Position numbers and translations under genes: made by a program
The notes under the pieces: model-generated
The model's database searches: none
What the model saw: the letters and a program-made list of their open reading frames with translations, nothing else
What the model was told of the DNA's origin: nothing
Shown here: in pieces, positions 21,001 through 24,000 of the stretch
Position numbering within the stretch: position 1 is the stretch's first letter
Layout of the letters: each line of letters starts with the position of its first letter
Source: Octopus sinensis
Taxonomy: Eukaryota
Length of the DNA: 64,000 nucleotides
Direction: 5' to 3'
NCBI RefSeq assembly: GCF_006345805.1
Contig: NC_043013.1
Span: forward strand, 3,658,001 to 3,722,000

Positions 21001-24000
21001 AGTCTCTGTGGAGCATTGTAAAACCTAAAGCATCTCAGAGCGGTACATCTCAACCTTTAGAAGCATTTGCTCTGTGAAGATAGAGAAATGGGAAAACTTA
21101 ATATTTTGACATCCCTGGAGTTTTCCAGGGTTGCATCTTGTTGTCGTTCCCCCTCTTCCCCCTCCTCCTAATTGTGGTTTCATTATGAAAAACTAGTCTG
21201 CAGCAATGAATATGGCATCCAGTTGAAAGATTAGATGACATTAATATTCAGAGTCCAGATGTGAAGTGGTGAGAAAACCTTACTGAAAATGAATGCAAAG
21301 AAAACAAAGGTAACTGAGATTAGTCCAAGAACAGGGGATGCCACTTTGACAGCTGAAGATCAAACTGTTGAAGATGTAAGTCATTTTGTGTGAATGAATA
21401 ATGATGGAAACACCGAAACTGCTGCCAAATGAAGAATCAGAAAAGCTTTTGCAGCATTTCAGTGAATGTACAAAATACGTTGCATGTATACACTGGACAC
21501 CTTAATCAAGATTCACCTGTGCAAAGCAGTCTATAGCTACTTTGAAAACATTGTTTAGCTTTTAATTAGGTTAGTTAATTCATATATTGATGACAATTTG
21601 ACCTGTTTCTTTGCACTTAGAGCTGTTAGACAGTGCATACTTGAAATGTAGATGAACTTAAGTATATTAAATAGTTTAGTTTTCTTGTAGTGTTTGTTGG
21701 AAAGAGAATTTTAGTGACAAGTATGCTAATTTGCTTTTGTGGTTGTGTGGTTAGAAGTTTGTTTCCCAACCACATGGTTCTGGGTTCAGTCCCACTGTGT
21801 GGTGCATTGGGCGAGTGCCCTCTACTTTAGCCCTGGGTCAACCAAAGCTTTGTGAGTGGATTTGGTAGATGGAAACTAAAAGAAGCATGTTTTATATATA
21901 TATATATATAGATCTATGTGTGTATGTCTGCTCCCCTCCCTTTACTGCTTGACAACCAGTATTGTTGTGTTTATGTCCCTGCAACTTAGTGGTTCGGCAA
22001 AAGAAACATATAGAATAAGTACCAGGTTTAAAAAAAAAAACAAAGTACTGGGGTTGATTTACAGTTCTATATTTAAGAGATGAATAATTATGTACATTAT
22101 TTACATTATTTACATTATATTCAATGGATATTTGTCCTCATCTTGTTTGTTATTAACACAATGTTTCAGCTGATATACCCTCCGGCCTTCTTCAGTTGTC
22201 TTGGGGAAATTTCGAACCGGGGTTCTCATTCCTAAGGTGTTTTTCGATGTTATTATTATTATTATTATTATTATTATTGTTCATGTCACTGCTTGGAATC
22301 AAACTCGGAATCTTCAGGTTAGTAGCCTGTACTCTTAACCACTACGCCATACCTTAGGAATGAGAATCCAGGTTCGAAATTCCCCCAAGACACCTGAAGA
22401 AGGCTGGAGGGTATATCAGCTGAAACATTGTCTTAACAACAAACAAGATGAGGACAAATATCCGTCAAATGTAAATAATGTAAATAATGAGGTTGATTTG
22501 TTTGAGTAAAATTCCTCATGGTGGTGACCCAGCATGGCTGCAGTCTAATGACTGAAAAAAGGTAAAAGATACTTACATAAAAGATACTTCCATGTTAGAA
22601 AGGGTTTTAATCAAAAAAATTTCAATTCTATTATTCTGTAAAATAATATTTGATTAGTTTAAATGTACACTAATGCATAAAAATAATTTTTGATTCCATT
22701 AAACATTCTAAAACACTATTAAATTTCATTCAATTTAAAAAAAGGTAAAATTGGACAGAACTTATGGGATGACCTGAGATAAATATATATATATATTATA
22801 TATATATATATATATATTTAAAGCAGAATAATAAAAAAAGGTTCTTTGTACAGTATAATATATTTGAAAAATATACTTTCAAATATATATATATAATATA
22901 TATATATATATATATATATATATATATATATTTATGTGTGTGTGTGTCTTTGAGTCTGTGTTTGTCTTCCACCACCATTGCTTGACCAATGGTGGTGTGT
23001 TTATGTTCCTATTATTTTGTGGTTCAGCAAAAGAGACTGATACAATAAGTACTAGGCTTGCAAAGAATAAGTCCTGGGGTCAGTTTCTTTGACTAAAACC
23101 CTTTAAAGTGATGCTCCTGCATGGCCACAATCAAATGATTGAAACATGTAAAAGAATGTGTTCAGTGAAAAGAGAAAAACGTGAAGTGTTAGCTGTTAGA
23201 TAAGTAATAGTAGTCCTGCTTGACAAGGGCTGATCTGATTGAGCAGACGGATGTGCAAGACCATGTGAGCCTTGGCCAGCTCTAATTTTTTTTTTATATT
23301 TAGAACAAAGATCATACAATATCTCCTTCCTTTCTGAAAATAACAAGGTGTGATTTTAGGGAATTTGGTTTCTGTTTCTAGCAGGTTAAGTGATCACACA
23401 GACGTTTCTTCTTTGGCTTGTTTGTAATGGTAGTAGTTGTAAGTGATGGTAGTTTTTGTAGTAGAAGCAGCCTTAGTAGGAGTAGTAATAATAGTAGTAA
23501 TAGTAGTAGTAGTAGTAACGGTGGTGGTGGCAGCAGCAGTAGTTTGAGCAATGATACTAGTCATTGTAATACCAACAGCAATAATAGTATTAATAATTGT
23601 TAGGTAAATGAAAATGCAGTTTTACATGACTATGTTAATCTAACAGCTTTATGTATATTGTTTCAATTCTTCATTTAGGTGGCACCAGTGTCTCTGGGGC
23701 CCTGGAATGTCCTGCTTCTGAGAAACGAGTCATTATCTCTGTTGATACATCACGAATGGTAAGAAATTCCACTACACTATATTGTTTTTCTGTTTTTGTC
23801 TTGCTATGAACTTTGGCAAGTATTCCGTGTACTTCTGTGAGTTTCAGTTAAGATTTGGCATAATTTAACCCTTTAAGCATTCAAACAGGCCATATCCGGC
23901 CCAAATATTTGATGTATTTTATGTTCAAACAGGCCAGATCCAGCCTCTCACACCTACCCTACAGTGTCATTCTAAACATAGACAATCACATCATCAAAAT

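Follow-up and report, generated by a model that had tools for sequence, protein, structure and literature searches.

Layout of the insertion and of its host SINE

The insertion occupies positions 22061-22490 of the window (the whole 64,000-nt stretch of Octopus sinensis DNA that was analysed) and is flanked on both sides by 9-bp direct repeats. It consists of two oppositely oriented arms of a Penelope-like element (PLE) lodged in a SINE, with the following features.

21945..22060, plus strand: left piece of the host SINE, from alignment of the rejoined flanks
22052..22060, no strand: left copy of the 9-bp target-site duplication (TSD), GGTTGATTT; the flanks rejoin as an unbroken SINE
22061..22351, minus strand: forward arm, PLE pseudo-LTR, unit positions 13-284, with the long end; 86% to the family reference
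22061..22229, minus strand: the 'tail', about 52 initial codons of the PLE ORF (ATG at 22229), frameshifted here; from translation and from locus L106
22061..22094, minus strand: PLE extension of about 30 nt, confined to the forward arm by comparison of the arms
22155..22200, minus strand: decayed minimal type-I hammerhead (CTGAAGA at 22195, stem II, GAAA at 22167, predicted cut 22160/22159)
22251..22278, minus strand: (AAT)n microsatellite, the spacer from head to ORF start, from motif reading
22279..22351, minus strand: tRNA-like head, truncated by 12 nt at its start, with A and B boxes; aligned to tRNA-Arg(TCT)
22304-22296, minus strand: B box of the head, one C>T away from GTTCGA
22349-22339, minus strand: A box of the head
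22349..22490, plus strand: inverted arm, unit positions 119-258, with the short end (ATG at 22360, CTGAAGA at 22394, GAAA at 22422)
22491..22499, no strand: right copy of the 9-bp TSD, GGTTGATTT; the flanks rejoin as an unbroken SINE
22500..22570, plus strand: right piece of the host SINE, from alignment of the rejoined flanks

The forward and inverted arms join via a 3-nt overlap (22349-22351). The motifs quoted in a sequence-only reading of this locus, namely a tRNA-like head, (AAT)n and a hammerhead-bearing tail, were all found in place, the sequence that it termed the tail spanning 22250-22061 of the minus strand. Its claim that about 140 nt of this tail are duplicated in inverted orientation ahead of the head was confirmed (22349-22488; 140 nt at 95.7% identity to the family reference), and the two arms are 89.6% alike over the 144 nt compared. 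The 9-bp TSD that it placed inside a SINE is likewise present: the flanks rejoin and match 11 other copies in the window at 71-80%, most of them spanning the junction. The host SINE (21738-21890, 21945-22060 and 22500-22570) is interrupted at two points, once by a (TA)n microsatellite and once by the Penelope insert, and about a dozen further copies of it lie within the window at 72-92%.

The autonomous element and the structure of its copies

The majority sequence of the family is a unit of 2,665 nt, in which the head (86 nt) is followed by (AAT)n, 22 nt, an ORF of 837 codons with its ATG at q130, and a further 22 nt; q1, unit position 1, is the T preceding a small hairpin at the head start. 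The single ORF has a reverse transcriptase (RT) followed by a C-terminal GIY-YIG endonuclease, the order found in EN+ Penelope-like elements. Motifs that we take to be those of the RT and GIY-YIG domains were read in it by eye. Longer protein relatives (52-68% identity) contained PF26215 in seven of seven cases and PF00078 in six of seven, and a Pfam scan of two of the family's own ORF fragments, both lacking the RT core, returned no families. By the layout that it shares with PAc, the Poseidon element of Anolis carolinensis, the family may be assigned to the Penelope/Poseidon clade.

Head and ORF were found joined from both sides. At one locus selected by its head (L033), the C-terminus of the endonuclease adjoins the head upstream, and the order ORF stop, 22 nt, head recurred in 29 of 29 non-query loci from a junction search with L033, a query itself biased to that junction. 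At L106 the tail continues in frame into the RT ORF for 390 codons. When a foreign PLE protein at 52% identity was used as the query, all 30 loci returned belonged to the same family. A full-length copy, L265, comprises head, ORF, second head and long end, and starts, in a fold-back, at head base 1; the terminal repeat thus seen at both its ends, and two further loci (L260 and L262) that span ORF end, head and ORF start, show the partial tandem arrangement of a pseudo-LTR. Because head and tail both belong to the autonomous unit, the 'SINE' is its pseudo-LTR and the 'tail' is coding sequence. The earlier expectation of an autonomous Penelope with the same pseudo-LTR was therefore borne out (a 2.67-kb unit with an 837-aa RT/GIY-YIG ORF), and the idea of a separate SINE that had borrowed a PLE tail was wrong, both parts being native to the pseudo-LTR. 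Within the B-box region of the 3' head of L265, at 1845-2070, lies a complete SINE of another kind (about 230 bp) with a duplication of about 14 bp.

The family is a real and abundant PLE whose pseudo-LTR incorporates a tRNA-like head. A search of the host assembly (2.72 Gb) returned 20 other loci that align to at least 350 of the 430 insert bases, two of which resemble one duplicated locus. Exact-pattern counts were 1,315 for a 25-mer of the head and 7,201 for a 20-mer of the tail, with none for the reversed controls. Median divergence from the family reference was 6.8% (145 copies), and sequencing runs of three other organisms also cover the element, ORF included. For the analysis of structure, copies were picked by the 25-mer inside the head alone and the first 90 of 100 listed were used, nearly all from contig 1. 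Head and tail were linked in 83 of these 90 loci, as co-occurrence of the two parts had been proposed.

Among the same 90 listed loci, 52 carry an inverted tail upstream of the head, the inversion typical of EN+ PLEs that had been suspected at the window locus. Both outer ends could be scored in 44 insertions (the other 46 had one scorable end or none), and in 43 of these 44 one end lies near q284 and the other near q255. Copies end at two sites in the ORF, at about +129 and +155, each arm using one of them. The long end may be on either arm (23 versus 20 in the two orientations), giving the one-sided tail of 30-40 bp. Exact direct repeats of 7-13 nt flank 32 of the 44, although the shortest may be due to chance. 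PLEs are known to show inversions and one-sided tails (PMC8557442, in the parts available), and the inversion, the one-sided extension of 30 nt and the minimal hammerhead are known Penelope traits. At L263 (3590-4905, C4 near 154.07 Mb), a head-to-head insertion has the ORF start in both arms (about 540 and 725 nt), which join at the head start as an enlarged version of the fold-back in the window.

The two arms of an insertion usually carry the same subfamily marker (q168, 63 of 76 with 40.7 expected; q237, 75 of 91 with 48.5 expected; the pooled sets include a few duplicate loci), and CpG decay is shared between them no more than by chance. This combination fits either a single template for both arms or one subfamily being active at a time. 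As the arm-to-arm junctions vary between copies, each insertion forms its own fold-back rather than inheriting it as a fixed terminal repeat. These variable junctions led us to reject an origin as a fold-back DNA transposon or MITE, in which the 140-bp arms would be terminal inverted repeats and the whole unit would be copied unchanged; its probability is negligible. Nearly the whole 430-bp layout is common to the 20 loci, but these had been selected for that layout, and arm lengths vary as well, an inverted arm is missing from many copies and the two outer ends are unequal in every case.

A minimal hammerhead with paired stems I and II, as proposed earlier, is predicted in the pseudo-LTR from the majority sequence, in which the core is accompanied by a stem I of 5 bp, an unpaired A, a stem II closed by G-C and a CG palindrome. 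Both copies in the window are decayed; the minus-strand copy reads GAAACATT at 22167 and has one mismatch each in stem I and stem II. AACATT had been regarded as one CpG decay away from the palindrome AACGTT, and since the family majority reads AACGTT (G 151, A 41) that view was correct. The proposed stem I, aagaca/tgtctt, depended on a mutation private to the plus-strand arm, and the stem I of the family is GACAC/GTGTT. Apart from CpG changes, the only variant common in the motif affects position 7, a free position (T 155, A 70); it also causes an Asp/Glu change, and because this is a conservative amino-acid change the variation is no proof of selection on the ribozyme.

The predicted cut falls after q199, 70 nt into the ORF, and the hammerhead lies inside the ORF start. 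Ribozyme cleavage as the source of the insertion ends was considered and rejected, as the predicted cut lies about 55 and 85 nt short of the two points at which copies end. RNAcofold gave no clean active dimer for two hammerhead monomers, and Rfam returned no match to a hammerhead or to the tRNA-like head. The predicted minimal hammerhead is probably dispensable for insertion.

The common 5' end at the tRNA-like head

The head aligned to genomic tRNA-Arg(TCT) with a score of 61, the best of 2,000 shuffles reaching 48; this tRNA was the best among those from 30 loci, in which the isotypes are partly sampled. The majority sequence retains both the A box and the B box, intact and at tRNA spacing, as expected of a tRNA-related head, and ARAGORN did not call the head a tRNA. 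One locus, L129, holds a tRNA-Cys gene cluster with one member bearing an ACA anticodon.

The 5' ends of copies pile up at this head. Of the 90 listed head copies, 72 begin within a few bases of q1, where 4.7 would be expected from the upstream truncation rate (0.003 per base in the ORF), and 18 run on into the ORF; L168 is borderline and could join the run-on class. When 70 arms were chosen by their tails instead, 28 reached the head start and 18 of these stopped there, the rate elsewhere being about 0.003 per base. The stops in this sample, in which two pairs share an insertion and the microsatellite stops are partly an alignment effect, were distributed as 20 at q113-216, 14 in the microsatellite, 8 at q16-85, 18 at q-19 to q15 and 10 beyond. 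Among 30 ORF-start loci, six independent ones reach the head, four beginning at q1-11 and two running on. Longer RNAs therefore exist, because 18 of the 90 listed copies and two of the six long loci cross the head.

The explanation that we favour, with a probability of about 0.6, is that the autonomous PLE gave rise to the insert by a short, inverted insertion, and that the tRNA-like head in the spacer of this element, from its ORF stop to its ORF start, probably acts as a Pol III promoter fixing most 5' ends of the template RNA. Pol III starts are typically at a pyrimidine-G step 13 nt ahead of the A box. The RNA would start at the G of the hairpin GCCC-AC-GGGC, 13 nt ahead of the A box. The PLE protein would then nick both target strands and begin reverse transcription internally at two sites, as Poseidon of Anolis does in vitro. 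Priming at the first ORF start and copying back to the RNA 5' end would give a SINE-like copy of 260-285 nt, and priming at the next tandem unit would give ORF-bearing copies, which would be full length if the RT reached the same 5' end. The cDNA end could fold on the hairpin or anneal by microhomology to produce the variable fold-back, and the short copies would probably be dead ends. The earlier proposal of a Pol III SINE is thus retained in part: Pol III is the leading hypothesis for the piled-up 5' ends, and the separate SINE lineage is not upheld.

A bolder scenario, in which Pol III transcribes the whole coding unit and which we regard as somewhat doubtful, is that the autonomous PLE captured a tRNA-type Pol III promoter in place of the Pol II promoter of its pseudo-LTR and rid its entire 2.7-kb unit of TTTT terminators. 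Internal priming of reverse transcription near the ORF start would then yield thousands of SINE-like copies of the element's own 5' end without a separate SINE gene.

TTTT is absent from the 2,665-nt unit, where synonymous-codon shuffles contain 2.9 on average and 139 of 5,000 reach zero (p~0.03), a depletion seen in one lineage and hence a single evolutionary sample; GGGG is likewise absent. Individual copies have 0.40 TTTT per kb, which is compatible with decay from a TTTT-free ancestor. Four of five other RT families in the assembly have TTTT at or above expectation, and 23 PLE ORF pieces from other hosts contain 84 in sum with 72.4 expected, three of the 23 having none. The absence of TTTT can be taken as weak support for the use of Pol III. 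A foreign PLE ORF of 2,265 nt (L404) also has no TTTT (1.7 expected) and no A and B boxes downstream. The genome's best RT-domain matches (L300-L329) are long open LINE-like frames on small unplaced contigs; 24 of these 30 come from one young family, possibly of a second organism in the assembly.

The head could instead be a passive tRNA relic, with Pol II or host read-through producing the RNA and the hairpin acting as a truncation hot spot at which the RT stalls or the cDNA folds. The hairpin (-5.2 kcal/mol) coincides exactly with the pile-up and is also native to the ORF-linked element. In three RNA runs from one study of a related organism, thousands of reads covered the element with equal depth on both strands, no pile-up of read starts or ends was seen, and RNA depth tracked DNA copy number; these reads look like read-through, which would suit a passive head, and speak neither for nor against Pol III use in the germline. 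In the available parts of two published accounts, the internal promoter of the D. virilis Penelope and of Chlamys is tied to a 5'-UTR intron (PMC8557442), and Kojima argues that Pol II is obligatory for autonomous LTR elements (PMC10886601). However, a hairpin of -5.2 kcal/mol would have to stop 60-80% of RTs, whereas the hammerhead region is more stable (-13.6 kcal/mol) yet is passed at the background rate, and the intact A and B boxes at tRNA spacing and the TTTT-free unit also count against it. A passive head with stalling at the hairpin is the main rival, and we consider it unlikely.

A mirror-image form of the hairpin loop (GT for AC) was found in 10 of 72 head-start copies and in 1 of 47 ORF-linked copies (Fisher p=0.048). 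Such mirrored loops are expected if the cDNA ends at q1-2 and then folds on itself; a predicted link between the mirrored loop and the long arm was not found (GT in four long and four short arms). No A and B boxes were found within 450 nt of the 3' ends of foreign PLEs (0 of the 40 with enough flank, from 80 loci, mostly only 27-50% identical), and they were found in 12-14 of 29 loci of the family itself.

A true SINE lineage, in which head-plus-tail copies would be Pol III-transcribed masters moved in trans by the PLE protein, appears distinctly improbable. Short copies do outnumber ORF-bearing ones among the 90 listed head copies (72 versus 18), and their 284-nt sense strand is free of TTTT. 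Nevertheless, head-start and ORF-linked copies have no fixed difference, both subfamily alleles occurring in each class and one site differing in frequency only, in a query-biased set, and long copies start at the same base. PAc, in the available part of its description, needs the ORF beyond its RT start sites (PMC11167929), which by analogy the short copies would lack. The features of a tRNA-derived SINE are missing in two further respects: the autonomous unit contains the head as a native part, with no diagnostic sites of a separate lineage, and in place of a 3' poly(A) or microsatellite tail the copies have an internal (AAT)n and two fixed ends in the ORF start.

A common 5' end could also arise independently of Pol III if an RNase P-type activity cleaved a long transcript close to the tRNA-like fold. 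The head is tRNA-derived and some forward arms begin at tRNA +1, but 32 of the 72 head-start copies retain bases ahead of tRNA +1, which the mirrored loops need, and the head no longer folds as a tRNA; this route is very improbable.

Relation to known elements

The following comparisons draw on partial texts of the sources cited. The closest system is Poseidon PAc of Anolis carolinensis (Frangieh et al. 2024, PMC11167929), which likewise has a single ORF with RT and C-terminal GIY-YIG domains whose start overlaps a hammerhead. Two internal RT start sites in its ORF start generate a tail of 30-40 nt, both target strands are cut and extended, and the ribozyme is unneeded for insertion. The octopus element differs in that its ATG lies 34 nt ahead of the hammerhead core and its 5' ends pile up at the head; the partial text describes no tRNA-like head in PAc.

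The predicted hammerhead resembles the minimal motifs of metazoan PLEs (Cervera and de la Pena 2014, PMC4209133) in its 5-bp helix I, the unpaired base ahead of helix II, the G10.1-C11.1 pair and the palindromic 15.2-16.2 positions; those motifs often occur singly or as opposite-strand pairs 100-700 bp apart. Its helix II is 5-6 bp long and theirs 7-8, and no Pol III head is reported in the portion available.

The combination of Pol III and a hammerhead, proposed earlier as an unusual class, has a precedent in Sm-alpha and Sj-alpha of Schistosoma (PMC6765202, PMC2770079, both in part), which are tRNA-related, apparently transcribed by Pol III and hammerhead-bearing. They are non-coding tandem units released by the ribozyme, whereas the octopus repeat is dispersed, serves a coding element as its terminal repeat, has a minimal hammerhead and ends away from the cut site. 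Its copies are dispersed and inverted and end past the predicted cut, unlike an Sm-alpha-type SINE or a non-LTR retrozyme, which would form non-coding head-to-tail tandems delimited by the ribozyme.

The TRIMp3 elements Helenus, Ajax and Cassandra (Kojima 2024, PMC10886601, in part) also carry a Pol III promoter derived from a small RNA within the terminal repeat, perhaps acquired by SINE insertion. Those are non-autonomous LTR elements, whereas the octopus repeat belongs to an autonomous non-LTR PLE and stands directly ahead of the ORF. Animal non-LTR retrozymes (PMC7229834; 10.64898/2026.07.22.740005) and non-autonomous Chlamys elements such as MRC1 (PMC8557442) are similarly short PLE-related units that share ends or a pseudo-LTR; retrozymes, in contrast, form head-to-tail tandems with type-I hammerheads and circular RNAs, and no tRNA promoter is described for them in the excerpts available. 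A PLE with a tRNA head in its pseudo-LTR was not found in the available parts of the literature on cephalopod repeats, mollusc SINEs, butterfly transposable elements and retrozymes, and Repbase, Dfam, SINEBase or the library of PMC13282606 may list the family.

In the usual view, autonomous retrotransposons use Pol II, and SINEs are separate parasites that combine a Pol III head with a LINE tail. With the tRNA head inside an autonomous element, the SINE-like product has the same sequence as its parent. If the start is truly due to Pol III, internal priming by the PLE would turn promoter capture directly into a SINE-like family, and the question would arise of how an uncapped RNA yields an 837-aa protein. 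Whichever polymerase is used, the thousands of copies, with their strict pattern of one long and one short end and the subfamily markers common to both arms, offer a genomic test bed for the two-site priming that PAc shows in vitro. Annotation is likely to mistake copies of the family for tRNA SINEs or MITEs.

Some individual copies depart from the common layout. At eight loci (L037, L038, L042, L051, L054, L147, L155 and L175) a gap of 100-1200 bp at the (AAT)n tract separates head from tail; the tract seems to expand or to draw insertions. One near-full-length insertion was found four times with identical structure on different contigs (L288, L289, L290 and L293), by segmental duplication or assembly redundancy. 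In the flanks of L041 and L070, more diverged head or tail copies (77-78%) lie beside younger ones, which hints at an older subfamily.
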